This document shows positions 49,358-64,000 of a DNA stretch of 64,000 bases, piece by piece. The first letter of the stretch is position 1. Every line of letters begins with the position of its first letter. A program made the position numbers and the translations under genes. The notes under the pieces were generated by a model. The model searched no databases. It saw only the letters and a list, made by a program, of their open reading frames with translations, and had not been told where the DNA came from. Source of the DNA: Bdellovibrionota bacterium FG-1 (GTDB taxonomy: Bacteria; Bdellovibrionota; UBA1018); NCBI GenBank assembly GCA_051382295.1, contig JBBCAW010000012.1, positions 32,001-96,000 of the forward strand, given 5' to 3'.

Positions 49358-50285
49358 GAACTTTTGCTACGGAGTCTCGCGGTTTTTTTGGCAGTCCTGC
49401 TTCGTCGGCAAATTTGCAGAACTGGCCAATAGCATCCCGCACTTCATCGATGATTTGAGGTGAATGTTTTAATCCGACCTCTAGCGCGAGGGTTTTTAGA
49501 TGGTCTCGAGTAGGATTGCGTCCTTCGCCTGCAACCAGCATCATATGTTCCCCGCCCGGCCCTGTTGAGTAGGTCAAATCGTAGGCGGGACTAGGGTGCC
49601 AAATCCCTTTTTCATTCATGAGAAATGCAAAATTTCGAGCATGATCATCGCGGTTTCTGCTGAAAACATTGAAACAGGCACGTCGAAACATTTCTGAAAC
49701 GTCAGCTTCATTTCGAGTCAGCTTGCGAGTCACTAATAAAAGTTCGCGATAGCCAAGAGCAGGGTAGGTGTGCCCCTTGAGGGGATCCACCGAGGGCAAT
49801 CAAATGGTCGAGGTCCTGACCCTCCACCTGATCTAGAACCATTTGGATCTCTGAAGCGACCTCGTCGAGATCAACGACTGAGGGCTGGTCTTGTTCGAAT
49901 TCTGGCTCATAAGTGAGAGCGCCCATTCCGTGCGACCCAACGTAGGCTAGACGATCCAGGGGCCCCAAAGATCCCGACGGAGGCGCCCGGCCCTTGCGAT
50001 TCGTCGTTCCAGCAACAAACGCCCCCAGCCGTCTGGCAGGCTGTCTTCGAAAACCCCCATTAAGCCCTGAAAAATAGCTGGATCACCGACCTTCACCCCG
50101 GAAGCAAGAGGTAGATTGAACGGCGAAAGTTCGAGGCCACGGTTTATAAAATCGGCGTCGTATTCGAAGAGAATTTCTCGATTTTTTTGTGCGAGCCTTC
50201 CAACTTTTTGCTGAACTCCTTCTTGGAGTTCTAAAAAGACTGTAAGGAGTTGGATAGGTGCGCGGTTTTTTTTGAGTATCATCAT
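49341..50285 (-). pseudogene. hipA: hipA toxin pseudogene (frameshift plus internal deletion)
   Basis: Three frames give the HipA N-domain (FEDSLPDGWG), LDRLAYVGSHGMGAL...GGSPQGA and C-terminal NRDDHARNF...SPAYDL; the central kinase region is missing. Confidence 0.88.
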
Positions 50286-50614
50286 TCCACTCCGGTCCCT
50301 CCGGTTCTTATGGCCCGTTTCCGTGAGGTGACTTTGTTCTGTCCCAGTGCCTCATCCAGGGAGGTATATTTGGGCGTTTCAAAGAGGCGCTCGAATGTGC
50401 TTTCGGCCCCAAGTGCGGTGGCGATCCGCAAGGCATTTTCAACAGAGACGTGCCCCGTTTTTTCAAAGCGGTGAAGCGTTGCAACACCGATGCCGGAGCG
50501 GTCCGCATGCTCCTGTTGGGTCCAGTTTCGAGAGAGTCGTAGAGCCTGAGTGCGTTGACCAATCGCTAAAAGGATATTTGAATAGGATTCAAGGCCTGTC
50601 CTAGAATTGATCAT
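50282..50614 (-). CDS. HipB-like Xre antitoxin
   Basis: LRLSRNWTQQEHADRSGIGVATLHRFEKTG HTH; 4-bp overlap with hipA. Confidence 0.8.
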   Translation of the reverse strand: MINSRTGLESYSNILLAIGQRTQALRLSRNWTQQEHADRSGIGVATLHRFEKTGHVSVENALRIATALGAESTFERLFETPKYTSLDEALGQNKVTSRKRAIRTGGTGVE

Positions 50615-50668
50615 TAATGATAGATTATAATCACTTTATGGCAATAGTTAATCAAAATTGATCGGTTA

Positions 50669-51673
50669 TTAGTTGTGGTTTTGGGTGATGTTTTGTCGAG
50701 AAATTTCTAAATTTCGTCTAAAATCGGCTGGTTTCACGCGGTTCAGTGCCGAGTGGGCGACGCGGGCTTTATAGGCGGCTGCGTCCTCCGCGAGGAGCGC
50801 ATCCCAATCCTGCAACAACCTTGGAGGTTCGTTACGAGATGATCCCCCGTCTTGTTCTAATTCCCGCCGAACTGGCTTTATGTTGAACGGACAGGCTTCT
50901 TGGCATAGGTCGCAGCCTGCGACCCACGGGCCAATCGCTTTTTGATCTTGCTCAGAAAGGCCAAGTTCGCCTCGCATTTCAAGAGTCCAATAGCTGATGC
51001 AACGTTCAGAGTTTAGCCAGTGAGGGTCTCGAAGTGCGCCTGTTGGGCAGCCCTGAATGCATCGAGTGCAGCTGCCGCAATAATCGGGCAAAGGTGTGGG
51101 GCCTCGTCCGGTTTTTTGGTTGATCAGCACGACGCCGATAAAAAAATAACTTCCTAGTTTAGGATGAATCAAAAGCGTATTTTTGCCAATCCAACCGAGT
51201 CCGGCCAGCGCAGCCCAACTTCGCTCGAGCACCGCACTAGTATCGACACAGATTTTCCAACGAAGTTCGGGGTAGTTTTGTTTGGTCTGCTCCATCATTC
51301 GTTCCAAGCGTTGCGCCAGCGAATCGTGATAGTCGAGGCCATCTGTTCCGGTTAAGCCGCGAAGGTATCTTGCGTACCTTGGACCCTCGCTGATTTCTGC
51401 TGCCCCGTACGGACGCCGAGGATAAGGCGCTAGTACGCAGAAAATGCTCTGAGTCTCTGGAAACATTAGGCGCGGATCAGCTCGCCGGTCACGGCCACGC
51501 TCGAGGTATTGCATGCGGCCTGGGTAGCCGCGTGCAAGCCACTCGTCGTAACGTGCAACATGGGGGGCAATGGCTTCGAGGCTGAGGTCACGATCTACCG
51601 CGCCCGCGCATGAAAAGCCCTCAGTCTGGGCGCTTGCGAGCAAAAGGGAGTAAAAATCAGCAGCAGCTTCCAT
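50669..51673 (-). CDS. queG: Epoxyqueuosine reductase
   Basis: DYHD, VDTSAVLERSWA..AGLGWIGKN, CGSCTRCIQGCPT, CISYWT, GCDLCQEACP. Confidence 0.93.
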   Translation of the reverse strand: MEAAADFYSLLLASAQTEGFSCAGAVDRDLSLEAIAPHVARYDEWLARGYPGRMQYLERGRDRRADPRLMFPETQSIFCVLAPYPRRPYGAAEISEGPRYARYLRGLTGTDGLDYHDSLAQRLERMMEQTKQNYPELRWKICVDTSAVLERSWAALAGLGWIGKNTLLIHPKLGSYFFIGVVLINQKTGRGPTPLPDYCGSCTRCIQGCPTGALRDPHWLNSERCISYWTLEMRGELGLSEQDQKAIGPWVAGCDLCQEACPFNIKPVRRELEQDGGSSRNEPPRLLQDWDALLAEDAAAYKARVAHSALNRVKPADFRRNLEISRQNITQNHN

Positions 51674-51691
51674 CGTGTAATCTAGGATGAT

Positions 51692-53089
51692 TTAGGGTGA
51701 TTTGAGAATACGACCGATGAGGTCATGTCCTTGGGCTTCAGTGAGAAGCACCTGCACAAAGTCCCCCGGTTTCAGAGTTTCTAAGGCATTGCTGTCCCCG
51801 AGATCATTGATCAACACATGACCATCGATTTCTTGCGCCTGTGTGGGCATCCGGCCTTGAATGAGGAGTTCGGTTTCGTCGCTCGGACCTTCGATCATCA
51901 CCTGCACAGTTTGGCCGACAAGTTTTTCGTTTCGAACCTGGGCCTGCTTCTGCAAAATGTCCGCAAGCTTTTTAGCGCGTTTTCGTTTAGTGGCCGGATG
52001 GACTTGGTCCGGCATATCATTGGCTTTGGTGCCTTCTTCTTTCGAGTAGCGAAACACGCCGACAAAATCGAGGTTGAGGTCCTCGAGATCGCGCGCCATC
52101 TCTTCGAACTGCTCCTCGGTTTCGCCCGGAAAGCCCACGATCATCGACGTACGAAACACCATTCCAGGAACTTTGGCTCTGAGCTTACTGATCAACTCAA
52201 AAAGCTTAGTTTTGGTAAGTCGTCGACCCATCGCCTTGAGAACGTCGTTATTGGTATGCTGAATGGGCATGTCGAGGTATTTGACGATTTTGGGCTCGCG
52301 TGCGACGATATCGATCAGTTCATCGCTAAAATCATCAGGATACACGTAGTGCAGTCGGATCCACTCGATGCCGTCGATTTTGCACAGAGCAGGCAGTAGG
52401 GTGAGCAGGCTGTCTTTGTAGCGGCCCTCGATTCCATAATGGGTGAGATCTTGCGCGACCAGGTTGAGTTCGCGGACTCCGCGTTTGGCCATGCCTTGCG
52501 CTTCTTCGACGAGCGACTCGACGGTGCGAGATCGAACATTGCCTCGGAGGGTCGGGATAATACAAAATGCGCAACGTCGGTTACAACCTTCTGAAAGTTT
52601 GAGAAAGCCCGTATAGCTCGGGCCGGTGTGCATGCGCGGATCTTTTTCAGAATGAATAAAGGCCGGTTGGTCGATGTAAGAGCGTTTGGGAAGGGGAGAC
52701 CCAAATTCTACCGATTTGGCGCGGGCATCTAAAAGCTCGGTGATGCGATGGTACTGGCCAGTGCCGATAAAAAGGTCGACTTCGGGCATCTCGAGTTCGA
52801 GTTGTTTGGAGTAACGTTGCGGCAAGCAGCCTGCGGCTACGAGAACTTTGCACCGCGCGCTTTGCTTGAGTTCGGCCATGTCGAGGATGGTCTCGATGGA
52901 TTCTTCTTTGGAAGCCTGGATGAATGAGCACGTGTTGACGATGATGACTTCGGCTTCTTGGGGATTGGTGGTGATCGAGTAACGATCCTTTTGAAGAAGT
53001 CCGAGCATGACCTGCGAATCAACGAGGTTTTTGGGACAACCCAAACTGATAAAATGAACTGGGGACTTCGATTTTGGGGTACTGCTCAT
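51692..53089 (-). CDS. rimO: Ribosomal protein uS12 methylthiotransferase
   Basis: SLGCPKNLVDS, NTCSFI, EGCNRRCAFCIIP radical SAM motif, C-terminal TRAM (QEIDG). Confidence 0.95.
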   Translation of the reverse strand: MSSTPKSKSPVHFISLGCPKNLVDSQVMLGLLQKDRYSITTNPQEAEVIIVNTCSFIQASKEESIETILDMAELKQSARCKVLVAAGCLPQRYSKQLELEMPEVDLFIGTGQYHRITELLDARAKSVEFGSPLPKRSYIDQPAFIHSEKDPRMHTGPSYTGFLKLSEGCNRRCAFCIIPTLRGNVRSRTVESLVEEAQGMAKRGVRELNLVAQDLTHYGIEGRYKDSLLTLLPALCKIDGIEWIRLHYVYPDDFSDELIDIVAREPKIVKYLDMPIQHTNNDVLKAMGRRLTKTKLFELISKLRAKVPGMVFRTSMIVGFPGETEEQFEEMARDLEDLNLDFVGVFRYSKEEGTKANDMPDQVHPATKRKRAKKLADILQKQAQVRNEKLVGQTVQVMIEGPSDETELLIQGRMPTQAQEIDGHVLINDLGDSNALETLKPGDFVQVLLTEAQGHDLIGRILKSP

Positions 53090-53096
53090 ACTTCGA

Positions 53097-53594
53097 TTAA
53101 TCCCTGAAATTTCCGAATTGCATCGGGACTTTGAGTTTGTCCTGGATTCCGCGAAGGTGGGCGATTGCGGCTTGGAGGTCATCTCGGTTTTTGCCGGTGA
53201 CCCGGACTTGCTCATCTTGAATTTGGGCCTGGACCTTTAGCTTAGATTCTTTGATCGCGGCGATGATTTCTTTGCCCTTTTCTTTGGAAACGCCGGCTTG
53301 GACGAGGACCACTTGGCGCACGCTGCTGCCGAATGCTGGCTCAAGGTCTTTGTATTCCAAGGACAAGAGCGAGATGCCTCGTTTGATGAGCTTGTTTTGA
53401 AGGATGTCGTTCACGGCCTCGAGTTTGCCTTCTTCGCTGCACCAAAGGGTGATGGTTTTTTCTTTTTGGTCGAGCTTGATTTCGGATTTAACGCCTTTGA
53501 AATCAAAACGTTGGCCGACTTCTTTGGTGGCCTGGTTGATCGCGTTATCCATTTCTTGCCAGTTCATTTCAGCAGAGACATCAAAAGAAGGCAT
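53097..53594 (-). CDS. yajQ: YajQ family nucleotide-binding protein
   Basis: [41 protein letters not shown]. Confidence 0.96.
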
Positions 53595-53710
53595 AAAAGG
53601 TCGATTCTCCTCGTTAAAATGGAATTTCCACGGAAATCGGTAATCTAATACAGAAATGGTCGGATAAAGGCAACTGGAAAAAACCGTCGCTGTTTTTAGT
53701 CGGAAAATTG

Positions 53711-54098
53711 AACCAAATCGAGCAGAACTCTCGTCCTGAGATCTCCGGTTAAACGCTGTACCCGGATCACCTCAGAGCTGTCCTAAGCAGTCGGCAATTG
53801 TTTTGACTAGAAAAACCAAGAGCTTGGCGAGGACAAAAAGACGCCAAATTCTAAATTTAAGTTTTTCGAGTCGGATCCGATGAGCATAATAGATGGTTCT
53901 ATTACTTTTCATAGGATGCCTCCTTTCTTTTTAGTGAAGAAGGGAGGTATTTCCGTCTACTCTGCGCGGTTTGGCAGGAACTTCAAAAGCAAAATTAATG
54001 CCGATGCCTGCTGGAACTTACAAAGGTTTTATCCCGTGGTCCGTCCGGATTTCGGTGAGGGTATTCGAAATTGGGACCAATAGGGTGTGCACAAGTCG
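53711..54098. repeat. Long direct repeat copy 1 (388 bp)
   Basis: Colinear without indels with 57313-57700 and with 54621-54971; most diverged copy in the 53980-54040 segment. Confidence 0.95.
53772..53912 (-). CDS. 46-aa basic/hydrophobic peptide, putative type I toxin (copy 1)
   Basis: Manual translation MKSNRTIYYAHRIRLEKLKFRIWRLFVLAKLLVFLVKTIADCLGQL; AAAGGAGG SD 6 nt before ATG; below the ORF-track cutoff. Confidence 0.8.
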   Translation of the reverse strand: MKSNRTIYYAHRIRLEKLKFRIWRLFVLAKLLVFLVKTIADCLGQL

Positions 54099-54120
54099 TG
54101 GATGATGTTATATAACGTCG

Positions 54121-54648
54121 ATGAATATTGATCTGCGCCCCATCCATGTCAAAGATTGGAAATTGCTTTTGAAGTGGCGCAATGATCCTCAAGTGACGCG
54201 TGACCTTGCTTTTCAAGCGATGTCTGAGGAAAGGGTCAGGCAGTTCATTCAGGAGAAGGTTGACTCGACGACAGATCGGACTTTTGTGATTGAATGTGAC
54301 GGGCAGGTGATCGGATATACTTTGATTGAGTCAGACGTTCTGAATAAAAAATGCGAAGTCGGCATCATTATTGGTGAGAAAGGATATTGGGGAAAGGGGA
54401 TCGGAAAGCAAGTTTGTCGAAAGATCACCGACATTGCCATTTCGGAGATGGGTTTACACCGGGTTTTGGCCGTGGCTTCTGAAAGAAATCTCGGATCAAT
54501 TCGTTGTTTTTTGTCTCAAGGATATCGCGAAGAGGGGCGTCTGCGGCACGCCAACTATCGCGACGGTAAGTTTTATGATCTTGTGCTGTTGTCTATGTTG
54601 TCCCACGAGTGGAATCATATACCAAACCGAGCAGAATTCTCTTCCTGA
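54121..54648 (+). CDS. RimJ/RimL-family GNAT N-acetyltransferase
   Basis: EVGIIIGEKGYWGKGIG acetyl-CoA motif, GLHRV, NLGSIRC, GYREEGRLR; last codons read into repeat copy 2. Confidence 0.9.
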   Translation: MNIDLRPIHVKDWKLLLKWRNDPQVTRDLAFQAMSEERVRQFIQEKVDSTTDRTFVIECDGQVIGYTLIESDVLNKKCEVGIIIGEKGYWGKGIGKQVCRKITDIAISEMGLHRVLAVASERNLGSIRCFLSQGYREEGRLRHANYRDGKFYDLVLLSMLSHEWNHIPNRAEFSS

Positions 54649-54971
54649 GATCTCCGGTTAAATGCTGTACCCAGATCAACTCAGATTTGTCCTAAGTAGT
54701 CGGCTGCAGTTTTGACTAGAAAAACCAGAATCTTGACGAGGACATAAAGACGCCAAGATTTAAATTTGAGTTTTTCAAGTCGGATCCGATGAGCATAATA
54801 GTTGTTTCTATTACTTTTCATAGGATGCCTCCTTTCTTTTTGACGAAGAAGGGAGGTATTTCCGTCTACTCTGCGCGGTTTGGCAGGGACCTCAAAAGCA
54901 AATTTGATGCCGACGCAACCTCGAAATTACGAGGCTTCAGGGCTGTTACCCGTCCGGATTTCGGTGAGGGT
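54621..54971. repeat. Long direct repeat copy 2 (351 bp, lacks last ~36 bp)
   Basis: Colinear with copies 1 and 3 up to TTCGGTGAGGGT, then unrelated sequence. Confidence 0.95.
54681..54821 (-). CDS. 46-aa basic/hydrophobic peptide, putative type I toxin (copy 2)
   Basis: MKSNRNNYYAHRIRLEKLKFKSWRLYVLVKILVFLVKTAADYLGQI; same SD and stop position as copy 1. Confidence 0.8.
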   Translation of the reverse strand: MKSNRNNYYAHRIRLEKLKFKSWRLYVLVKILVFLVKTAADYLGQI

Positions 54972-55055
54972 GACTAGAATCCGGACCCGGAAAGTTCAAA
55001 AGCCCCTCCTCCCTTCCCAGCCCAAAAGCAGCGACCAGGAAGGAGGGGCGCAGTT

Positions 55056-56333
55056 TTAGTTTTTGTAAATCGGCAAAATTCCAAAGGGAGCAGCAGGGGC
55101 TTTTGAATAAAATAACCGACGTCCCCAAGGTGCTTTTTGTTTGCTGACGATTTTACCGTCACAGCTGACTTCGGTGCGAAATCCACCCTGATCAAATATC
55201 CCACCCAATGGCCAATCTTCCGGAGTATCGGTACATGAGGTGGCTGAGCATTCAATAGGCCAAAAGGGTCCCCCGGCCTCTTTCTGTCCTGGGGCGAATT
55301 GAGTGAAACAAACCAATCCGAAAGTTCGGCACTCAGGATTCGAGAATTCGACGTGAAGATGGTCAACGACTCCAATCGCTTTCACGGTTTTGGTGAGGAG
55401 GGCGTTTCCAAAAAAATCACGACAAACAGCGACGCATTGATTGTTCATATCCTTTTCGGTATTCGGGACTCCCGAAGGATAGGCATCACTTTCTTTTTCC
55501 TCCCAATATCTAATAAAATCTAAGCCAATGGTTTTACAGGCGCCGCCGGTTGAGACTGGCTGATAAATGACGGGTAATGGCTGATTGCCGGATTTTTCCA
55601 CAGAAACCTGCCAGCTGAAATGGGGCGCAATGGGTTGAAGTTTGTTTCAGTCAGAGGTGGGGGCGAATAAAAAGCCGACCATCTTTCGGGCTTCTTCGGA
55701 GTCATGAGCTTCGTAGTAAAGACGAGCTAGGCCATAAAGCACTTCGTGAACAAAAAAGGCGGCTTGATCGGTAGGTGTGAATTTATCAAATACGGTTTTA
55801 GAGATCCGGAGTGTGCCATCCGATTCGTAAAATCCTGCGTATTGGAGCTCGCACCCTTCTGGGATCACAGCGGGAAAGTGCGAGCCTAAATCAGAAACCC
55901 CGGGCATCGTGACACCAGCAGGTAGGAAATTGACCTGGGTCTTGAATTTTATGAGGAGATCCACAAAGTCCTGTCCGATGTATGGATTCCACTGGGCTAA
56001 TCGTGCTTGGATTTGATTGATTTGCGCATCAGCGCTGTCTTGAGATTGCGGAATCGTCAGGCCAAAACGAATTTCGGCTTCATAGAGGTCGAGAAGGTGA
56101 GCGGAAACGACCTTGCGATCAGTTCCTAGGCAGACCACCGACGCTCCGCCTCCGCTCGAGCCCGGCCCTGTTGAAGTGCTCGTTCTGCCTCCGCCGATTT
56201 TTTCGGTTACTACTGAGGTACCCAGAGCGGGTGGGCGATCGGATGGGGAGGGCGTGGTCCCTTGTTTACTGCAGGCGCAAAACACCAAAAGGAATCCGAC
56301 GGTTGAAAGAAATTTTAGGGCAGAGGATTTCAT
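55056..56333 (-). pseudogene. Hypothetical lipoprotein split by one in-frame TGA
   Basis: ORFs 55647-56333 and 55056-55601 share a frame (...FAPTSD*NKLQPIAPHFSWQVSVEKSG...); lipobox CAC; GGGASVVC...LLDLYEA and HEVLY motifs. Confidence 0.7.
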
Positions 56334-56476
56334 ACATTTTTCCGTTTCCGCTGCGATTTAACAAGAGGAGCATCATTTAGCAGCGTTTCGCCACGTAAAA
56401 AATGGCTGATTTTTAGGAGCTAAACTAGATAATAATTATGTTTTTATTACCTTAATTGTTATAAATTATTACTCAT

Positions 56477-57286
56477 ATGGGTGAGCAAAGTGTTTTTTCT
56501 TTTTCAGACTATAAGCAGTTTCTTTGTCATTATGTGGATGTTCACAAAAAAGAGCGGGGCAGTATCCGGCGGATGGCTGAAGCGGCGGGTTGTCAGCGAT
56601 CCTACATGTCCCAAGTTTTAGGCACTCATGTGCATTTAACACGGGAGCAGGCGTGGGGTCTGTGTTCTTTGTTTGGTTTTAAGGATCTTGAGTCGCAATA
56701 TTTTATGGTGTTGATCGATCTCGCGCGCGCGGGAAGCAAAAAATATCGGGAAAATTTGGAGTCGCAGCGAAAAATGTTAAAACAAAGGTCCGAGGATCTT
56801 TCGGAACGCACCACGCGTAAGCGGATCGAGTCTGAGGATTTTGCGATGGAGTATTATTCGGCGTGGTATTGGAGCGCGATCCATATTTTAGTTTCTATTC
56901 CGGGCTTTCAGACTGTGAAGTCAATTGCGGCAAAGTTGTTTCTTGATGAAAAAACAGTCGAAAACAGCCTTAAACGATTGGCTGTGATGAAATTGGTCAC
57001 TCAAGAAAAAGATCGATGGTGTTTCAGGCAAGAAAGTATTCATGTGCCAAAGGATTCGCCTTATGTGGTCTTTCATCATCGGAATTGGCGAGATCGGTCG
57101 GTTTTATCTTCACAGGCCTCGGATCACGAGGGGATTCATTACACGATGGTTCAATCCGTGAGTCGAGACGTGTTGCCTCGAGTTCGTCAGCTTTTTCTGG
57201 ATGCTATAGAGCAAGCCAATCGTATTGCTGGCCCTTCTGCTCCTCAAGAGTTGGTCGCGATTAACTGTGACATTTTTTCAGTATGA
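56477..57286 (+). CDS. TIGR02147/DUF4423-like HTH regulatory protein
   Basis: VFSFSDYKQFL, MAEAAGCQRSYMSQVL HTH, YYSAWYWSAIHIL, FHHRNWR, terminal INCDIF; pattern of the family expanded in Bdellovibrio and Fibrobacter. Confidence 0.8.
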   Translation: MGEQSVFSFSDYKQFLCHYVDVHKKERGSIRRMAEAAGCQRSYMSQVLGTHVHLTREQAWGLCSLFGFKDLESQYFMVLIDLARAGSKKYRENLESQRKMLKQRSEDLSERTTRKRIESEDFAMEYYSAWYWSAIHILVSIPGFQTVKSIAAKLFLDEKTVENSLKRLAVMKLVTQEKDRWCFRQESIHVPKDSPYVVFHHRNWRDRSVLSSQASDHEGIHYTMVQSVSRDVLPRVRQLFLDAIEQANRIAGPSAPQELVAINCDIFSV

Positions 57287-57312
57287 ATAAGAAACCCAGC
57301 ATAGGGTTTTAA

Positions 57313-57700
57313 AACCAAACCGAGCAGAATTCTCATCCTGAGATCTCCGGTTAAATGCTGTACCCGGATCACCTCAGATTTGTCCTAAATAGTCGGCTAT
57401 TGTTTTGACCAGAAAAACCAAGATCTTGGCGAGGACAAAAAGACGCCAAGATTTAAATTTCAGTTTTTCAAGTCGCGTCCGATGAGCATAATAGGTTGCT
57501 CTATTATTTTTCATAGGATGCCTCCTTTCTTTTTGACGAAGAAGGGAGGTATTTCCGTCTACTCTGCGCGGTTTGGCAGGGACCTCAAAAGCAAATCTAG
57601 TGCCGATGCTACCTCGAAATTACGAGGCTTCAGGGCCGTTACCCGTCCGGATTTCGGTGAGGGTATTCGAAATTGGGACCAATAGGGTGTGCACAAGTCG
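57313..57700. repeat. Long direct repeat copy 3 (388 bp)
   Basis: Colinear with copy 1 over its full length. Confidence 0.95.
57374..57514 (-). CDS. 46-aa basic/hydrophobic peptide, putative type I toxin (copy 3)
   Basis: MKNNRATYYAHRTRLEKLKFKSWRLFVLAKILVFLVKTIADYLGQI; same SD and stop position as copy 1. Confidence 0.8.
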   Translation of the reverse strand: MKNNRATYYAHRTRLEKLKFKSWRLFVLAKILVFLVKTIADYLGQI

Positions 57701-57704
57701 CAGG

Positions 57705-58070
57705 TCAGTCAAAGCGGCAAAATACATCCAGATCTTTGCCCCCTCGGGTATAACTCAATTGCTGGTATCGCTTCCTCTCAGTAACAAGCGTCGTAGATAC
57801 TGCTTTTGTTATCGTATCCGTGATTCCCATAGTCATTACTTTTGAGCCGTCTGACATGGCGGCATAGACAAAGACGCCGTTAATTTCCTTTTCGACGGAA
57901 TTTTTATTTTCCTTGGAAATGGCCCCTTCAATCTGTTGTTCGGGAGTATCGGTACCTCGAATCATGCACTTAACTTTCTTTGGAGGCGGGCTTGTCTTCT
58001 GCGCCGTAGCGTAGGATGCGCCGAAAAGAATTTCGGAAATACAGAATAAACCGATAGAAAGTAGCTTCAT
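57705..58070 (-). CDS. Small secreted hypothetical protein
   Basis: Signal-like MKLLSIGLFCISEILFGASYA from ATG 58070; two Cys near the mature termini. Confidence 0.6.
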   Translation of the reverse strand: MKLLSIGLFCISEILFGASYATAQKTSPPPKKVKCMIRGTDTPEQQIEGAISKENKNSVEKEINGVFVYAAMSDGSKVMTMGITDTITKAVSTTLVTERKRYQQLSYTRGGKDLDVFCRFD

Positions 58071-58264
58071 AAATCCAATGATACAGGCAAGCCTGATAAC
58101 TTTGTCAACCCACCGCTCATAGTGCACCAAGTCGCACAGCCTTGTTCGTTGCTTGCCCCACGTAAAAATTCCTGCTCTTGCCTTTTTGAGTTCCCTTGCT
58201 AGAGTCGGGTGCTTCACAACTCGATCATCCACGGCTACGACGACTCTGGGAGAATTTAGAGACG

Positions 58265-61200
58265 ATGCGCATTAAAAGACTCGAAATTCAAGGCTTTAAG
58301 TCCTTTAAAGACAAGACTTTGATCCATTTTGATCATGGCATTACAGGGATCGTGGGGCCGAACGGCTGCGGTAAATCCAACGTCGTTGACGCCTTCTTTT
58401 GGGTCATGGGCGAGCAGTCTTATAAGCATATGCGCGGCAGCTCGAGCGACGATTTGATCTTTAACGGTAGCTCCAAATATAACCCGCTCGGTATGGCCGA
58501 AGCGACGCTCGTGCTTGAAACGGACGCAGCGGATACCGAAAGCGCACCCGCAGGCGCCAGCGCTGCCGATATTCCGGTTCATCTGCGTTCAAAAGAGATC
58601 TCTGTGACTCGCCGCCTCTATCGCGGGGGCGAGGGCGAATATTTTATTAACGGTGTCCCGGCGCGTCTTAAAGACATCCACGACCTGTTCATGGATACCG
58701 GCGTGGGCGCCAAAGGTTATTCCGTCATCGAACAAGGCCAAATCGGCAAGATTGTGCAAGCCAAGCCTGAGGAACGCCGTCTTTTGATTGAGGAAGCGGC
58801 CGGAATCGCCAAGTACAAAGCACGCAAAAAAGAATCTCTGCGCAAAATGGAAGCCACCCAGGGCAATCTTTCGCGCCTCACGGATGTCATCCAAGAAATC
58901 GAGCGCAGTTTAGGTTCTTTGGATCGGCAGGCTCAAAAGGCCCGCCAGTACAAAAAGTATAAAGAGGAGTTGCTCGATAAGGAAATGACCTGGGGTCGTC
59001 GTAAAAACACGGTTTTACGGCAAAAACTCGAGATGCTCGCCAAACAAAAAGAGCAGCTGGAGCAAGAGTTAGTGGGTCTTCGAGCTGAACTTCAAACTGC
59101 TGAAAACACCATCGAAACCGATCGGGTGGATCAAGTCACTGATACCAAGGCCGCTGAAGAACTCCAAGCCCAGATCAATCACTGTTCGAGTGAACTGGCG
59201 CACGAGCGCAGTGCTTTGGAGCTTTCTCGGCAACGGCAAAGTGATCTGCATCAACAACTCAGCGCACTCGATCACGAAAAGTCCGAGCTTAAAAACTCCA
59301 TCGAAGAGGAGCGTCTCAAGCTCGAAAACCGAGAAATCGAAGCCTCCGAATCAAACGACCTCTACCAAGAGGCTTCTGTTCAAGCTCAATCGGCCGACCA
59401 AAAAGCTCGTCAGGCACGTAATGAGGCTGACGGACTTCGGCGTGACCTCGAAAATCGCAAGCGCGAGCTCATGAAGGGAATTTCGCAGGCTTCGGACCTC
59501 ACTTCACGTGCCGCTTCCTTGGCTTCTCGTATTGAATCAGCCCAGGCTCAGGCCGAACGTCTGAAAGCTCAAGTCAGTGAGCAACACGAAAAATTAGCCG
59601 TCACTCGCGAAGAAACTCAGCGGGCTTCTGAAAACGCCGAGTCGGTCAAAATGAAGCGAGAAGAGCTGCAAGTCGAAAAAAGGGCCCAAGCGGATCGTGT
59701 TCAAGGATCTGATCAAAACACGAGAAAACTCGATCGCGAACGTGACGACAGTCATCGCAAACTGACTCAGCTTAAGTCTAAATTGCAATCGCTCGAAGAG
59801 CTTGCTGCCGCCTATGAAGGACTGGGTGATGGCCCTAAGGCCGCCCTCGAATGGGCACGCGATAATGGCCAGGCCGATCAGCTCTTGGCGCTGACCGACG
59901 CTTTGGATGTCACCGGAGAGTTCGAAACCGCACTCGGTGGCCTTCTCGAAAAACGGCTCGAAAATCTCATTGCCCGCGATACCAACGCTGCGCTGGGCGC
60001 GATTCAACATGTCGCTCATGCTAAGCAAGGCCGAATTGCCATTCAAGTGGCTTCGGGGCTTGAGGGGCGTCAAGCTGGCGCTTGGGATGCTGTTCGGGAT
60101 GCCCTCACTCAATCTGGATTTGAGGTTCTGGGTCAGCTCACTGATCAGGTGACGATTAACGCCAAACTCGATTCAAAGGTTCAGGCCATCGCCAGTGGTT
60201 TGATTGCTCACGTGGCTGTGGTCCGATCATTCGAACCCATGGCGCGGTTTATTTCGGGGTCTGCGGGTGGAACTGCAATGGAGCAGTTGGCCGGTTGGTC
60301 CGTTGTCAGCCAAGAGGGTGATGCCCTGGATTATGACGGCACTCTTCGCGGCGGTAGCACCGAGTCCGATGGGGCCGCAACCGTTCTCAAACGCAAGCGA
60401 GCCATCACGGATTTGCAGGCCCAGGTGGAACAAGCGGAATTAGCGCATCAGTCCGTTGAAAACGCAGCCATGACCGCTAAAGTCGAACTGGAAGAAGCGC
60501 GAACTCGGCTTCAAACCGTTCAGACCGAACTTCAACAGGCTGAAATTCAAGGCGCTGCCTTTGAACGAGATGTTCATCAAATGAGTCGGGCCTTGCGCGA
60601 GGCGGAGAATCACGCAGAGCGGTTACAAAGCGATCTTTTGCAGATGGAAGAACAGGGGCAATCGGCCCGTATCGAACGCGAAAATATTGAAGATGAACTA
60701 GCCGCGATCGTTTCTTCGCGCTCGGATTTGGAGGCCCAGATTTCGGCCGGAGATGACGAAATGGCGCTTCGGGACACCGAAGTCCGCGCGCAAGAGGTCG
60801 AAGCGCAAGCGCTTAAAATGAACGAGGTCACGCTTCGGGAGCGAGCCCAAAGTTTGAAGCGCGAGCTTGAAACGGGGCGCACGCTCATTGCGGATCGCGC
60901 ACGACGCTTGGCGGAAATTGACCGCACCCTGGACCGCGCTACCCGCGAACGAGAGCAGCATACCGGTGGTGAGGGCGGGATTGAAGAAAAGATCGAAGAG
61001 CTGACGATTCAATTATCAACGGCACGTGAGCAGCTTTCTGAGGTGAAGGATCGGCTTGAAAAGTCCGGTGCCGAGCTCAATCGCACTTTGGAGCGCATCA
61101 AGCAGTTCCATAAAACCGGTGACCACAAAACGTCTGAAAGTAATCAGGTCGGCCTCGAAATCGAACGTATTTCTGGGGATTTACAACATCTTGTGCAAAA

Positions 61201-61960
61201 TCTGGAAGAAAAATACGGTCCAGGTTGTCTTGAGCTTCCGGTGACCTCTCCGATTCAGGAAGAAATGACCGATCCTGTCGTCACGCACGAAATGACGGCG
61301 GAGGAGGAACAAGTTTTGGGCGAGGAAGTCGAACGTCTTCGCGAACGCATTCGGCGTCTGGGCGAAGTGAACGTGGGAGCCATCGAAGAATTCGAAAATA
61401 CGAAAAAGCGCTTTGATCATCTTGAAAGTGAAAAGCTCGATTTGGAGCGTTCTCTGGAAAATCTTCAGGATGCCATTGAGCATATCAACAAGACTTCCGA
61501 AGAGCGTTTTGTGCGAGCCTTTGAGGCCATCAAAGATCGGTTTGAGCGTCTCTTCCCTATCGTTTTTGGGGGAGGCAAGGCCGAACTTACGTTGGTTTAT
61601 CCGGAAGGCTCCAAAGATGTGTTAGAGGCCGGTGTCGACATTTTGGCCCAACCGCCGGGCAAAAAGGTCGTCAATATGACGTTGCTCTCCGGGGGTGAAA
61701 AGGCCCTCACCGCAGTCGCCTTTATTTTCGCGATCTTCATGGTCAAACCTTCTCCGTTTTGTTTATTGGATGAGGTTGACGCCCCGTTGGATGATGCGAA
61801 TATTGGAAAGTTTAATGCACTTTTGCGCGAGATGTCGGCGAAGAGCCAGTTCATTGTGATCACGCATAATAAAAAAACCATGGAGCTCAATGACACTCTG
61901 TACGGGGTAACGATGGAAGAGCCTGGTGTTTCCAAAATGATTTCGATTGAACTTCAATGA
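58265..61960 (+). CDS. smc: Chromosome partition protein Smc
   Basis: GFKSF, GPNGCGKSN Walker A, long coiled coils with hinge, LSGGEK signature, LLDEVDAPLD Walker B. Confidence 0.97.
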   Translation: MRIKRLEIQGFKSFKDKTLIHFDHGITGIVGPNGCGKSNVVDAFFWVMGEQSYKHMRGSSSDDLIFNGSSKYNPLGMAEATLVLETDAADTESAPAGASAADIPVHLRSKEISVTRRLYRGGEGEYFINGVPARLKDIHDLFMDTGVGAKGYSVIEQGQIGKIVQAKPEERRLLIEEAAGIAKYKARKKESLRKMEATQGNLSRLTDVIQEIERSLGSLDRQAQKARQYKKYKEELLDKEMTWGRRKNTVLRQKLEMLAKQKEQLEQELVGLRAELQTAENTIETDRVDQVTDTKAAEELQAQINHCSSELAHERSALELSRQRQSDLHQQLSALDHEKSELKNSIEEERLKLENREIEASESNDLYQEASVQAQSADQKARQARNEADGLRRDLENRKRELMKGISQASDLTSRAASLASRIESAQAQAERLKAQVSEQHEKLAVTREETQRASENAESVKMKREELQVEKRAQADRVQGSDQNTRKLDRERDDSHRKLTQLKSKLQSLEELAAAYEGLGDGPKAALEWARDNGQADQLLALTDALDVTGEFETALGGLLEKRLENLIARDTNAALGAIQHVAHAKQGRIAIQVASGLEGRQAGAWDAVRDALTQSGFEVLGQLTDQVTINAKLDSKVQAIASGLIAHVAVVRSFEPMARFISGSAGGTAMEQLAGWSVVSQEGDALDYDGTLRGGSTESDGAATVLKRKRAITDLQAQVEQAELAHQSVENAAMTAKVELEEARTRLQTVQTELQQAEIQGAAFERDVHQMSRALREAENHAERLQSDLLQMEEQGQSARIERENIEDELAAIVSSRSDLEAQISAGDDEMALRDTEVRAQEVEAQALKMNEVTLRERAQSLKRELETGRTLIADRARRLAEIDRTLDRATREREQHTGGEGGIEEKIEELTIQLSTAREQLSEVKDRLEKSGAELNRTLERIKQFHKTGDHKTSESNQVGLEIERISGDLQHLVQNLEEKYGPGCLELPVTSPIQEEMTDPVVTHEMTAEEEQVLGEEVERLRERIRRLGEVNVGAIEEFENTKKRFDHLESEKLDLERSLENLQDAIEHINKTSEERFVRAFEAIKDRFERLFPIVFGGGKAELTLVYPEGSKDVLEAGVDILAQPPGKKVVNMTLLSGGEKALTAVAFIFAIFMVKPSPFCLLDEVDAPLDDANIGKFNALLREMSAKSQFIVITHNKKTMELNDTLYGVTMEEPGVSKMISIELQ

Positions 61961-62619
61961 AAAAAATTCAGCTGTATTCATTAGGTCTGCTATTGGCTTT
62001 GAGTGGGATGGCTCAAGGGCAAGTCGTAAAAGCTCAACCCAAGCACTTGCCTGCCTTGCTCGAAGAAGTGGAGGCTAAGTATACCAAGGCCGCCACGCTA
62101 CAGGCTGATTTTACGCAGGTCATCGAGGTAGCCGCTCTTAAGTCTAAAAAGACCACCACGGGTGTGATCATGGTTAAAAGGCCGGACAAGCTGAGATGGG
62201 AAACGCTGCACCCCGAAATGAATCTCCTCGTGAGTGATGGCCACAAATTTTGGTTTTATACGCCACCGTTTGATGAAGGCGAACACGGGCAGGTCATTGA
62301 GAAAAAGACCGATGAGATTAACTCCAAGCTGGCGAAAGCCTTACTTTCGGGGCGATTTTCGGTAGCTAGGGATATGAAGATTCGCCAAAAAAATTCTTCG
62401 CGGTTTATTCTTACTCCCCGGCGCGGCACCGCAGGGACCGTCGAGCATGCTGAAATTGAAGTCAGCCCTGGAAAAAAACTCATTCAAAAGGTGATTTTGG
62501 TTCATGAAGGTGGAAATCGCGCGGAAATTTCGCTCTCAAAAATCGAGCTTGGCAAATCGATTGGAGATGAAGCCTTTGTTTTTGTGGCCCCCCCTCATAC
62601 TGACAAGGTGACGCAATAA
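61957..62619 (+). CDS. lolA: Outer-membrane lipoprotein carrier protein
   Basis: Signal peptide, LQADFTQ, KRPDKLRWE, LLVSDGHKFWFY, FVFVAP. Confidence 0.85.
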   Translation: MKKIQLYSLGLLLALSGMAQGQVVKAQPKHLPALLEEVEAKYTKAATLQADFTQVIEVAALKSKKTTTGVIMVKRPDKLRWETLHPEMNLLVSDGHKFWFYTPPFDEGEHGQVIEKKTDEINSKLAKALLSGRFSVARDMKIRQKNSSRFILTPRRGTAGTVEHAEIEVSPGKKLIQKVILVHEGGNRAEISLSKIELGKSIGDEAFVFVAPPHTDKVTQ

Positions 62620-62657
62620 AAAAAAGCCCCCGAGTGTCGATCAAACCCTCGGGGGCG
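62618..62657 (-). terminator. Intrinsic terminator oriented for a minus-strand transcript
   Basis: GCCCCCGAG...CTCGGGGGC stem; the adjoining A run gives a U-tract on the minus strand only. Confidence 0.75.
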
Positions 62658-63015
62658 ATACTACGCCGGTCGTGATAAAACCACCGGCTCTATTTGGGAC
62701 GACACGTTAAAGTGCCGTTATATTTTGCCCGGTCGGAGATTTCGGGGCACTTTATGAACCCCTGCGGGCACGCCTCACGGCGACCTGACATCTCGTAATA
62801 AACCCGGGACAGAGTAGATTTTAATTTTTTTACTGCTTTTTTCCGACGCAGTCTTAAGTGGCCACTTAAGATTCGGCGGCTCATGAGCTCCGCAGACGCC
62901 TGAGGGCGGTTTGGCTCACGCTTTCACTGGCGTGGTGGACCGATATCATGAAACTCAATCAAAGAGATGTAAACGTACGACTTTCTTAGCATTCCTAGTT
63001 GCCCTCCGTTTCATA
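62618..63015 (-). ncRNA. Candidate structured non-coding RNA (~400 nt), family unassigned
   Basis: Sigma70-like promoter upstream, several stem-loops and own terminator; no convincing CDS. Confidence 0.4.
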
Positions 63016-63021
63016 ATTAAT

Positions 63022-63050
63022 AGACTATATTGGTATGGTATTAATTGCAA
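63022..63050 (-). promoter_or_regulatory. Sigma70-like promoter
   Basis: Minus strand TTGCAA-N17-TAGTCT in an AT-rich tract. Confidence 0.45.
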
Positions 63051-63137
63051 TAGACAAAGTTTATGCAATTTAACTTTTTTTAAAGTCGACTAACAACAGA
63101 GAGTTAAAAGGGTAAGTGTCGAATATTTAAGCTTTCT

Positions 63138-64000
63138 TCACCGTTTCTTGGCTTTTTTTTCGACCTTTTTAGGGGCGGGTTTTGCCTTTTTTTGTGCGGC
63201 TCGTGGGTTCCGAAGCGCTGCCTGGGCGGCTGCCAAAAGGGCGATGGGCACTCGATAGGGCGAACAACTCACGTAATCCAGTCCGGCGCGGTGGCAAAAC
63301 TCCACAGATTGGGGATCGCCACCGTGTTCACCACAAATTCCTACCTTCAGATCAGGACGGGTTGCCCGACCCTCTTTGATGGAAAACGCCATCAGTCGGC
63401 CTACGCCTATTTGGTCGAGCGAGGCAAAAGGGTCGCGATCATAAATTTTTGCGTCGATATAATCCTTTAAAAAGATGCCCGAATCATCCCGCGATAAACC
63501 GTACGTGGTTTGTGTGAGGTCATTGGTGCCGAAGCTGAAAAAGTCGGCGTATTTTGCGATTTCAGCGGAGGTCAGGGCCGCTCGCGGGAGTTCAATCATT
63601 GTGCCGATTTTATAATCGACGTTTCCTTTGAGACCACTGGCCTTGTAGTATTTGACGATCGTGTCCGCTTCGTCGCGACAGTAGTCTCCGACAAACTTCA
63701 GTTCACGCCAATCGCCAATCAGAGGGATCATGATCTCAGGCACGATCTTAAACCCCTCTTCCTTCATGAGCTCACAGGCCGCATCCATGATGGCATGGAT
63801 CTGGGTGCGATAGATTTCGGGATAACTGACGCCCAGCCGGCAGCCACGATGACCGAGCATGGGATTGAACTCATGCAAGCTTTCAGCTTTTCGTTTAATT
63901 CGATCAAAGGATACTCCGATTTTAGCTGCGAGTTCCTGAAGGTCAGAATCTTTTTGTGGAATGAACTCATGAAGGGGCGGATCCAAAAGTCGAATCGTTA
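63138..64000 (-). CDS. ppdK: Pyruvate, phosphate dikinase, C-terminal part (starts outside window)
   Basis: DPPLHEF, EFNPMLGHRGCRLG, GTMIELPRAAL, FSFGTNDLTQ, GICGEHGGDP, YVSCSPYRVP. Confidence 0.97.
   Translation of the reverse strand, partial: TIRLLDPPLHEFIPQKDSDLQELAAKIGVSFDRIKRKAESLHEFNPMLGHRGCRLGVSYPEIYRTQIHAIMDAACELMKEEGFKIVPEIMIPLIGDWRELKFVGDYCRDEADTIVKYYKASGLKGNVDYKIGTMIELPRAALTSAEIAKYADFFSFGTNDLTQTTYGLSRDDSGIFLKDYIDAKIYDRDPFASLDQIGVGRLMAFSIKEGRATRPDLKVGICGEHGGDPQSVEFCHRAGLDYVSCSPYRVPIALLAAAQAALRNPRAAQKKAKPAPKKVEKKAKKR

Follow-up and report, generated by a model that had tools for sequence, protein, structure and literature searches.

A candidate sigma-54-gated, RNA-locked family of type-I-toxin-like small peptides in Bdellovibrionota

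The repeat family and its open reading frames

The subject of this work is a family of repeated units found in a 64-kb stretch of DNA of Bdellovibrionota bacterium FG-1 (assembly GCA_051382295.1; 4.44 Mb in 158 contigs, 51% G+C), namely positions 32001-96000 of contig C12, hereafter the window. The repeat search revealed in the window one direct-repeat family with three copies, R1, R2 and R3 (53711-54010, 54620-54919 and 57313-57612), that share 88-89% identity across 300 nucleotides (nt), and BLAST with the first copy against the whole assembly extended them to 53711-54098, 54621-54971 and 57313-57700 (86-88% identity, E 1e-114 to 1e-140). Three long direct repeats had been described at these coordinates in an earlier, sequence-only reading of this DNA, and both searches recovered them there. 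The open reading frames (ORFs) of 46 amino acids (aa) that it had placed on the minus strand of each repeat are likewise present, with the peptide sequences it had given (Table 1), and, as it had proposed, the ATG, the stop codon and the Shine-Dalgarno (SD) sequence AAAGGAGG, located 6 nt upstream of the ATG, are identical in 3/3 copies. These findings are far above what chance would give, and of the 26 near-full-length copies in the genome, 25 keep this reading frame open. The ORF is only a part of the functional unit, to which an upstream dyad, a sigma-54 promoter and a structured RNA of ~265 nt also belong, and this accounts for a repeat as long as ~390 nt. It is argued below, with a confidence that only slightly exceeds an even chance, that the units constitute a sigma-54-gated, RNA-locked, type-I-toxin-like family of small peptides, the toxic effect being presumed.

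A protein search of the assembly returned 20 open frames of the peptide family, and a profile hidden Markov model run over all six-frame stop-to-stop frames returned 27 matches, which correspond to 25 intact ORFs, one decayed copy and one adjoining 25-aa fragment. The intact ORFs form six subfamilies: A (four members, i.e., the three window copies and C3:108821), B (six), C (five), D (three), E (six) and F (one). DNA identity between the subfamilies is only 66-73%, yet the peptide profile still detects all of them. On contigs C5, C22 and C62 several copies are arranged head-to-tail in arrays with 430-450-bp spacing. The decayed copy, which is of A type (C9:1686), has an intact promoter, SD and N-terminal half, while its C-terminal half is out of register and its 3′ region is lost; it lies immediately downstream of a D-type copy reduced to the 25-aa fragment and the 3′ end, and the whole segment (C9:1412-1862) seems to be what remains of a mixed tandem array.

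The family is also carried by 9 of 40 close relatives, with up to 18 matches per genome, and, in a phylum-wide sample of 400 other genomes, by 19, often in several copies (copy numbers in this survey are lower bounds, at most 17 candidates per genome having been scored). All carriers of the survey belong to one order, where they make up 13 of 57 genomes of the own family and 4/7, 1/1 and 1/1 genomes of further families, and the peptide family was not found in the other 334 of the 400 sampled Bdellovibrionota genomes. The named matching records are metagenome-assembled genomes labelled Bdellovibrionia, Oligoflexia or Bacteriovoracaceae, 'Bdellovibrionota bacterium FG-2' and a few bins with other labels. 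The FG-2 record has no metagenome label and includes one or more intact units. Some copies elsewhere (L075, L077, L078 and L079) are truncated within the hydrophobic region of the peptide, with the 3′ part lost.

Selection on the peptide and its predicted properties

The sequence-only reading had pointed to an excess of synonymous differences and to selection on the peptide, and both were found. Between the window copies the proportion of differences is 0.23-0.24 at synonymous sites (pS) versus 0.09-0.11 at non-synonymous sites (pN), which gives a ratio of non-synonymous to synonymous substitution rates (dN/dS) of 0.36-0.44. The Nei-Gojobori estimates, performed on 49 within-subfamily pairs, yielded dN/dS below 1 in 47/47 pairs with defined dS (range 0.00-0.61, thus not near 1), and in the 2 remaining pairs the synonymous sites are saturated (pS 0.81-0.82, pN 0.21-0.24). 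Between subfamilies pS reaches 0.50-0.85 versus pN of 0.24-0.45. The mean column entropy is 0.95, 0.69 and 1.14 bits at codon positions 1, 2 and 3, respectively. The peptide length varies from 43 to 53 aa, with all length differences in frame, and a strong SD together with ATG is present in every copy. The peptide is under purifying selection and the ORF is a real coding sequence.

The consensus of 69 members of 41-53 aa reads MK..(5-9 polar/basic)..YYSxRIRLEKLKxKxW-L-VLA(K/R)-L-FL........L. A 19-aa window with a mean Kyte-Doolittle hydropathy of at least 1.6, beginning near residue 24, is present in 66 of them; the net charge has a median of +8, and +6 of it falls N-terminal to the hydrophobic window, and AlphaFold2, supplied with the 69-sequence alignment, predicted a single helix of residues 3-45 (mean predicted local distance difference test score of 85). 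These charge and hydropathy counts and the modelled helix agree with the basic N-terminus and single hydrophobic helix noted previously. The positive-inside rule is established knowledge for membrane orientation, and since the N-terminal half is basic, the peptide is predicted to be an N-in, tail-anchored single-pass membrane peptide.

No named family was recognized in the sequence-only reading, and the database searches led to the same outcome. A Pfam-A search with 20 members at E≤10 returned only four unrelated single-member DUF/SopE matches (E 0.03-0.27) and thus none to a named type I toxin family such as Hok_Gef, Ldr_toxin, TisB_toxin or Ibs_toxin, NCBIfam, PADLOC and PDB sequences gave 0 matches each, and PHROGs gave only matches of E at least 0.04. 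The best score in the ESM Atlas was 0.83 (unnamed clusters); the nearest named cluster, TisB at 0.75, scores no better than chance and carries no weight here. The profile retrieved 31 entries from 5.8 billion clustered proteins, all of them unnamed or termed 'hypothetical protein', and 64 entries at E≤1e-3, nearly all of 40-50 aa, from 1.84 billion 50%-identity representatives. Since only 31 entries are found among 5.8 billion proteins, gene callers seem to miss the family for the most part.

Could such a peptide be a weapon rather than a self-directed product? An exported, cationic, membrane-active peptide (bacteriocin- or phenol-soluble-modulin-like), diversified by an arms race, is plausible in a largely predatory phylum, and the high net positive charge, the long helix with a hydrophobic half, the many diverged paralogues and the lineage restriction would fit it. 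However, neither a signal peptide nor a double-glycine leader is evident in the peptides, none of the 26 copies has a linked gene for export, immunity or processing, and we know of no exported peptide with a translational lock as tight as the one described below, which together make this explanation very unlikely.

Sigma-54 promoter and upstream dyad

When the 26 copies were aligned with their flanks, conservation in the ORF orientation was found to have sharp edges, and a TGGCA(C/T)-N5-TTGC(T) motif was located 71-78 nt upstream of the ATG, in the same direction as the ORF. The motif was evaluated in the 46 elements (25 of them from this genome, 21 from others) whose upstream sequence was long enough. 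In 43 of these (25/25 and 18/21, respectively), GG-N10-GC is present 12-15 nt before the first RNA helix (P1, see below), the 3 elements without it are off by one base each, and GGYHY-N5-TWGC fits in 40 of the 46. The genome has one rpoN (Sigma54_DBD, 219 bits) and 25 Sigma54_activat matches of at least 179 bits. Judged by this conservation, each unit has a sigma-54 promoter with -24/-12 elements, from which transcription is predicted, by the usual rule for such promoters, to start 11-13 nt past the GC element. The strict form TGGYAY-N5-TTGCW occurs 54 times genome-wide and 12 of these sites are within the units, so that the family may hold a large share of the sigma-54 promoters of the genome.

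Further upstream, exactly 74-75 nt from the GG, a GTCCG-like pentamer is found in 15/26 copies. It belongs to an imperfect inverted repeat GTCCGnATTTCG ... CGAAATnCGGAC, situated ~100 nt upstream of the predicted start, and the units of other genera have GTCCG-N5-CGGAC-type dyads in the same region. The position of about -100 and the symmetry make the dyad a candidate enhancer site for a sigma-54 activator. It is not unit-specific, as there are 9 perfect palindromes of the GTCCG-N5-CGGAC type, with an AT-rich spacer, elsewhere in the genome versus ~4 expected by chance. A link of the dyad with the P1 arms, which are similar to it in subfamilies C and E, was considered and rejected, since sequence comparison showed that the dyad is constant while P1 covaries.

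Structure of the RNA

The structure was studied on a MAFFT alignment of 47 distinct RNAs, of which this genome contributed 25 and other genomes 22, and RNAalifold gave a consensus of 61 pairs for it. The decayed copy (A5x) and the units of L067, L046, L071, L038 (both), L039, L055, L075, L078, L079, L077 and L050 were left out for a weak or missing end helix or loop motif. In this alignment 87.3% of the cells of the 61 pairs are paired, versus 39.7-53.4% when the 3′ partners are slid by 1-3 columns, and the covariation score is 0.273 versus 0.085-0.125 when slid; because the alignment used for the test had also served to derive the structure, there is some bias in its favour over the slid controls, yet the margin is large. 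The observed values were reached by 0/500 shuffles on four measures and by 1/500 on the fifth, the number of pairs in which both partners have changed.

The first nucleotides of the predicted RNA, GCCAAAYYnnGCAG, are complementary to the last conserved ones of the repeat, CTGCnnRRTTTGGT. Together they form the end-to-end helix P1; its 14 pairs are 90.4% paired, with changes on both sides in 10 of them (slightly lowered counts, as the B and D3 rows are off by one column at the 5′ end of the alignment), and its arms change together between subfamilies and genera (CCAAATCGGACAG/CTGTCCGATTTGG, CCAAACTAAGCGGC/GCCGCTTAGTTTGG, CCAGACCGGGCAG/CTGCCCGGTCTGG, CCCAACCGAGGCGCGCG/CGCGCCTCGGTTGGG). Besides P1 there is a hairpin in which an anti-SD sequence pairs with the SD (10 pairs, 84% paired, 4 changed on both sides), a further helix that encloses the start-codon region, with invariant UGA/UCG columns, an intra-ORF helix (9 pairs, 6 compensatory) and a 3′-untranslated-region (3′-UTR) hairpin with the near-invariant loop GGGURCAGC. 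G-U cells outnumber A-C cells 262 to 135 across the 47 RNAs, which indicates that the ORF-bearing strand is the folding one. Single-sequence folding of this strand gave a minimum free energy of -86.3 kcal/mol (z -4.1). The structure of the ~265-nt mRNA is supported by covariation, with its ends placed by prediction, and the end-to-end helix, with a U-rich tail behind it, may have a second role as a long-range terminator.

In silico, the fold keeps the ribosome-binding site closed: the median probability that the SD core is unpaired is 0.006 in the 47 full-length RNAs. Trimming of 15-60 nt from the 3′ end leaves the SD closed (0.002-0.003), so that a hok-like activation by 3′ trimming is unsupported, whereas removal of 30 or 45 nt from the 5′ end, anti-SD included, raises the probability up to 0.20 and 0.43, respectively. 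Since only 5′ truncation frees the SD, the fold, if it is a lock, is more likely opened by 5′ processing or unwinding.

Such a structure raises the question of whether the RNA itself could be the product, i.e., chiefly a regulatory RNA that pairs via the loop GGGURCAGC, with the peptide secondary, either a Qrr-like multi-copy small RNA or an RNAIII/delta-lysin-like dual-function RNA. The many copies of a short RNA with a candidate enhancer site and a sigma-54 promoter, the near-invariant, non-coding 3′-UTR loop and 5′-UTR stretches and the extensive covariation would suit this idea; against it, purifying selection acts on the peptide itself, a protein profile still detects it in copies with diverged DNA, the SD and the ATG are invariant, and Rfam gave no match at E≤1 beyond the sub-threshold ones described below, nor was a target identified. 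A chiefly regulatory role is thus considered distinctly unlikely. The idea that the units are a non-coding repeat or miniature mobile element with an accidental ORF, the arms of P1 being its terminal inverted repeats, is effectively refuted. The dispersed repeat, the 14-nt inverted arms and the location of several copies at contig ends speak for it, and yet dN/dS is below 1 in every pair where it is defined, the frame is kept in nearly all copies, the arms are internal to the conserved unit, as the promoter and the dyad upstream of them are also conserved, and the bias of G-U over A-C means pairing at the RNA level; furthermore, no target-site duplications were seen when the unit edges were read in the alignments. 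A miniature inverted-repeat transposable element was therefore rejected on coding selection, internal arms and RNA-level pairing.

Features and neighbourhood of the window copies

The features of the three window units are collected in Table 1.

Table 1. Features of the units R1, R2 and R3 in the window
Feature	Position	Strand	Remarks
R1 unit, upstream dyad to RNA 3′ end	53711-54098	-	subfamily A; repeat and genome searches
R1 dyad, candidate enhancer-binding-protein (activator) region	54043-54077	-	imperfect inverted repeat GTCCCAATTTCG ... CCGAAATCCGGAC; ~75 nt upstream of -24 GG; putative function
R1 sigma-54 promoter (-24/-12)	53989-54002	-	GGCAT-N5-TTGC; predicted start near 53977
R1 predicted structured mRNA	53712-53977	-	~266 nt; ends from promoter position and 5′-3′ helix
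R1 P1 5′ arm	53962-53975	-	GCCAAACCGCGCAG
R1 P1 3′ arm	53712-53725	-	CTGCTCGATTTGGT
R1 anti-SD/SD hairpin	53919-53947	-	sequesters AAAGGAGG; anti-SD 53937-53947, SD 53919-53929
R1 ORF	53772-53912	-	46 aa
R1 3′-UTR hairpin loop	53755-53763	-	near-invariant, GGGTACAGC
R1 candidate antisense promoter	53863-53890	+	sigma-70-like, TTTTCG-16-CATAAT, weak
R2 unit	54620-54986	-	subfamily A
R2 dyad	54952-54986	-
R2 sigma-54 promoter	54898-54911	-
R2 predicted RNA	54621-54886	-
R2 P1 arms	54871-54884 and 54621-54634	-
R2 anti-SD/SD hairpin	54828-54856	-
R2 loop	54664-54672	-
R2 ORF	54681-54821	-	46 aa
R2 candidate antisense promoter	54772-54799	+	TTTTCA-16-CATAAT
R3 unit	57313-57700	-	subfamily A
R3 dyad	57645-57679	-
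R3 sigma-54 promoter	57591-57604	-
R3 predicted RNA	57314-57579	-
R3 P1 arms	57564-57577 and 57314-57327	-
R3 anti-SD/SD hairpin	57521-57549	-
R3 loop	57357-57365	-
R3 ORF	57374-57514	-	46 aa
R3 candidate antisense promoter	57465-57492	+	TTTTCA-16-CATAAT

The units are found in short intergenic gaps, in all orientations relative to their neighbours, which in the window are ordinary genes (DUF520/YajQ, GNAT acetyltransferase, a DUF4423 protein, RimO-like, SMC). A conserved partner gene was searched for among 50 flanking ORFs and rejected: beyond the shared neighbours of tandem copies, the recurrence is limited to a DUF4423 paralogue beside two units, the protein encoded at 56477-57286 (269 aa, Pfam E 1.7e-19), convergent to R3, and the one encoded at C130:11717-12784 (355 aa, 30% identical), convergent to a copy on another contig, C5. 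This recurrence may be due to chance within a large paralogous family. Since no neighbouring gene is conserved, the unit is self-contained.

The GNAT acetyltransferase ORF (54121-54648, plus strand) enters the 3′ end of R2, which lies on the opposite strand, by ~28 nt (54621-54648), so that its last residues are repeat-encoded; this suggests that the arrival or duplication of R2 reshaped the C-terminus of the acetyltransferase. Two minus-strand ORFs between or beside the repeats, 55647-56333 (228 aa) and 57705-58232 (175 aa), have no Pfam family, and the former has a lipoprotein-like N-terminus, as read from its sequence.

Proposed mode of action and its alternatives

The described features can be arranged into the following model, in which each repeat is an autonomous gene unit of ~390-450 bp. 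The candidate enhancer site ~100 nt upstream and the sigma-54 promoter would hold transcription off until a presumed enhancer-binding ATPase is activated. The ~265-nt transcript would then close, with P1 joining its ends, the anti-SD burying the SD and the start codon placed in a further helix, leaving a primary transcript that is probably stable but untranslatable. Translation would require remodelling, e.g., the removal of the 5′ ~30-45 nt that bear the anti-SD. The peptide would insert N-in as a tail anchor and may damage or depolarise the membrane of its own cell, as type I toxins do. The many copies, the tandem arrays, the decayed copies and the patchy distribution fit a toxin-like, semi-selfish family.

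The sequence-only reading had proposed a type I toxin-antitoxin family. What this claim says of the peptide layout is supported, as the peptide is selected, basic and hydrophobic, and its mRNA has the anti-SD/SD hairpin and the 5′-3′ pairing, and that the RNA works like a type I toxin mRNA is well supported on the RNA side, toxicity being presumed; the antitoxin part has to be reduced to one weak candidate promoter. A consensus promoter scan of both strands found one recurrent promoter-like site, antisense and inside the ORF, in the same alignment column in 13/26 copies at the threshold used, and RNA from this candidate promoter would extend across codons 1-6 with the start codon as well as the SD. 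Its -10 hexamer is acceptable in 32/46 elements, six of which have a perfect TATAAT.

Several observations weigh against the toxin reading, and most of them concern the antisense strand. The -10 hexamer is without its essential A or T in 14/46 elements, and the -35 is poor, being TTTTCN throughout and matching the consensus in at least 4/6 positions in only 7/46. The -10 hexamer is also the complement of two Tyr codons and falls within an RNA helix, hence its conservation may have other causes. No antisense terminator was seen downstream of the SD hairpin, two subfamilies having been read by eye, with no scan of all elements. Single-sequence folding of the antisense strand is equally good (z -4.5), so that the energies do not separate the strands. 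With respect to the peptide, one or two conserved charged residues are present within the hydrophobic segment, including a basic residue (Lys/Arg) ~7 positions into it, and in subfamily E this segment is short (minimum Kyte-Doolittle mean of 1.02). Finally, no type I toxin controlled by sigma-54 and an enhancer-binding protein was found in a search of the open-access literature, which makes the analogy incomplete. An RNA antitoxin may nonetheless exist, the weak promoter being the only candidate for its origin.

The ORFs that are antisense to the peptide gene on the plus strand (53880-54083, 67 aa; 54789-54977, 62 aa; 57482-57685, 67 aa) were rejected as genes: they are confined to subfamily A, and the longest M-started antisense ORF varies from 1 to 74 aa over 47 elements. 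An Rfam scan of 50000-64000 at E≤1 returned only a CopA-like (E 0.79), an anti-hemB (E 0.75) and a tmRNA (transfer-messenger RNA; E 0.3) match, all far below the gathering scores. The CopA-like match (57483-57558, plus strand; 25 bits versus a gathering score of 60, below any threshold) is antisense of the R3 start-codon/SD hairpin, the place where an antisense RNA would be expected. The tmRNA-model fragment (56382-56466, plus strand; 11.8 bits) lies in the AT-rich spacer between the hypothetical lipoprotein and DUF4423 genes and is almost certainly due to chance.

A benign explanation has to be weighed as well, in which the units encode a sigma-54-regulated family of small membrane proteins, stress-response or regulatory micro-proteins that modulate a transporter or sensor, with an mRNA structured for stability or signal-dependent translation; such proteins would not be toxic and would have no antitoxin. 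The coding selection, the tail-anchor-like helix, the sigma-54 promoter and the structured mRNA fit it equally well, and the search for an antitoxin, which yielded only the weak candidate promoter, also favours it. Modulatory micro-proteins are usually single-copy and have a stable synteny, whereas here the copies number 26, fall into six diverged subfamilies and include tandem arrays and decayed members, with a patchy distribution within the own family (13 of 57 genomes) and no conserved partner gene; besides, the double translational lock suggests a dangerous product. For these reasons a benign role is regarded as unlikely. Even if the peptides are not toxic, they would still form an unannotated, strongly selected micro-protein family that is mostly missed by gene callers.

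Returning to the toxin reading, one may ask whether an RNA antidote is needed at all. We tentatively consider, as a doubtful though not negligible extension, a new class of chromosomal toxin module that has no RNA antidote of its own and relies on two locks, the sigma-54 promoter, silent unless its ATPase activator is present, and an end-clamped mRNA whose buried ribosome-binding site needs 5′ processing, expanded to ~26 diverged copies per genome within one order of Bdellovibrionota. If this were true, the module could provide a signal-triggered, graded self-depolarisation, serving dormancy, abortive infection or a developmental switch.

Comparison with known systems

By sequence comparison the family belongs to no named type I toxin family, since neither the peptide nor the RNA profile matches. 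The hok mRNA of plasmid R1 and its chromosomal homologues, whose 5′ and 3′ ends pair, is stable and inert in its full-length form, and its chromosomal loci are multi-copy, with decayed copies among them. The family resembles hok/Sok in the small, predicted membrane peptide, the structured mRNA with paired ends and the multi-copy loci that include decayed copies. Unlike hok, it has no mok-like leader ORF and no sequence or Pfam relation to it, 3′ trimming does not open its SD in silico, its promoter is of sigma-54 and not sigma-70 type, and neither a Sok-like antisense RNA nor an Rfam match was found.

The mRNAs of the E. coli toxins tisB, zorO and dinQ are inert as primary transcripts and become translatable once a 5′ segment is removed, with tisB and dinQ gated by the SOS response. 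The likeness of the family to tisB/IstR-1, zorO/OrzO and dinQ/AgrB lies in transcription upon a putative dedicated signal and in an SD that opens, in silico, only on 5′ truncation. No homology is found, however, and while the antitoxins of these systems are divergent small RNAs encoded upstream, the upstream region of the family looks enhancer-like and does not covary with the mRNA.

The Qrr1-5 RNAs of Vibrio are transcribed from short, multi-copy units, each with an activator site (for LuxO) and a sigma-54 promoter, and are non-coding and Hfq-dependent. The units described here are likewise short, multi-copy and provided with their own candidate upstream site and sigma-54 promoter; in contrast to Qrr, their RNA encodes a selected peptide and has no Rfam match.

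A likeness in layout can be drawn point by point with AapA/IsoA of H. pylori: a basic N-terminus followed by a hydrophobic helix, several chromosomal copies, sequestration of the SD by an anti-SD and a 5′-3′ long-distance interaction. The systems differ in that no homology is detectable, the family is under putative sigma-54 control, its antisense RNA is only a candidate, and its SD is locked in the final fold by a local upstream anti-SD and not by the 3′ end. In the T1TAdb description, the antisense RNA of AapA/IsoA overlaps the 5′ part of the ORF (PMC8594479). The candidate antisense promoter of the family sits where such an IsoA-type overlap would lie.

The open-access literature yielded no report of a Bdellovibrio type I toxin or of an RpoN-dependent small RNA from this group. 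The species collected in T1TAdb are mostly Proteobacteria and Firmicutes. The database covers 24 families and 218 species, and its text makes no mention of Bdellovibrio (PMC8594479). According to the same paper, type I toxin mRNAs are 150-400 nt long, and their key determinants are SD/anti-SD pairs, formed by a nearby stem-loop or a 5′-3′ long-distance interaction, 5′ stem-loops and 3′ terminators (PMC8594479); the family RNA has both the anti-SD/SD hairpin and the 5′-3′ pairing. If the toxin reading is true, the type I toxin kind would be extended to Bdellovibrionota, and, as far as the open-access literature shows, this would be the first structured mRNA of toxin type to be controlled by sigma-54 and an enhancer. 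The small, self-contained unit, with ~50 natural variants that map its helices, offers a test bed for translation locks built from mRNA folds.

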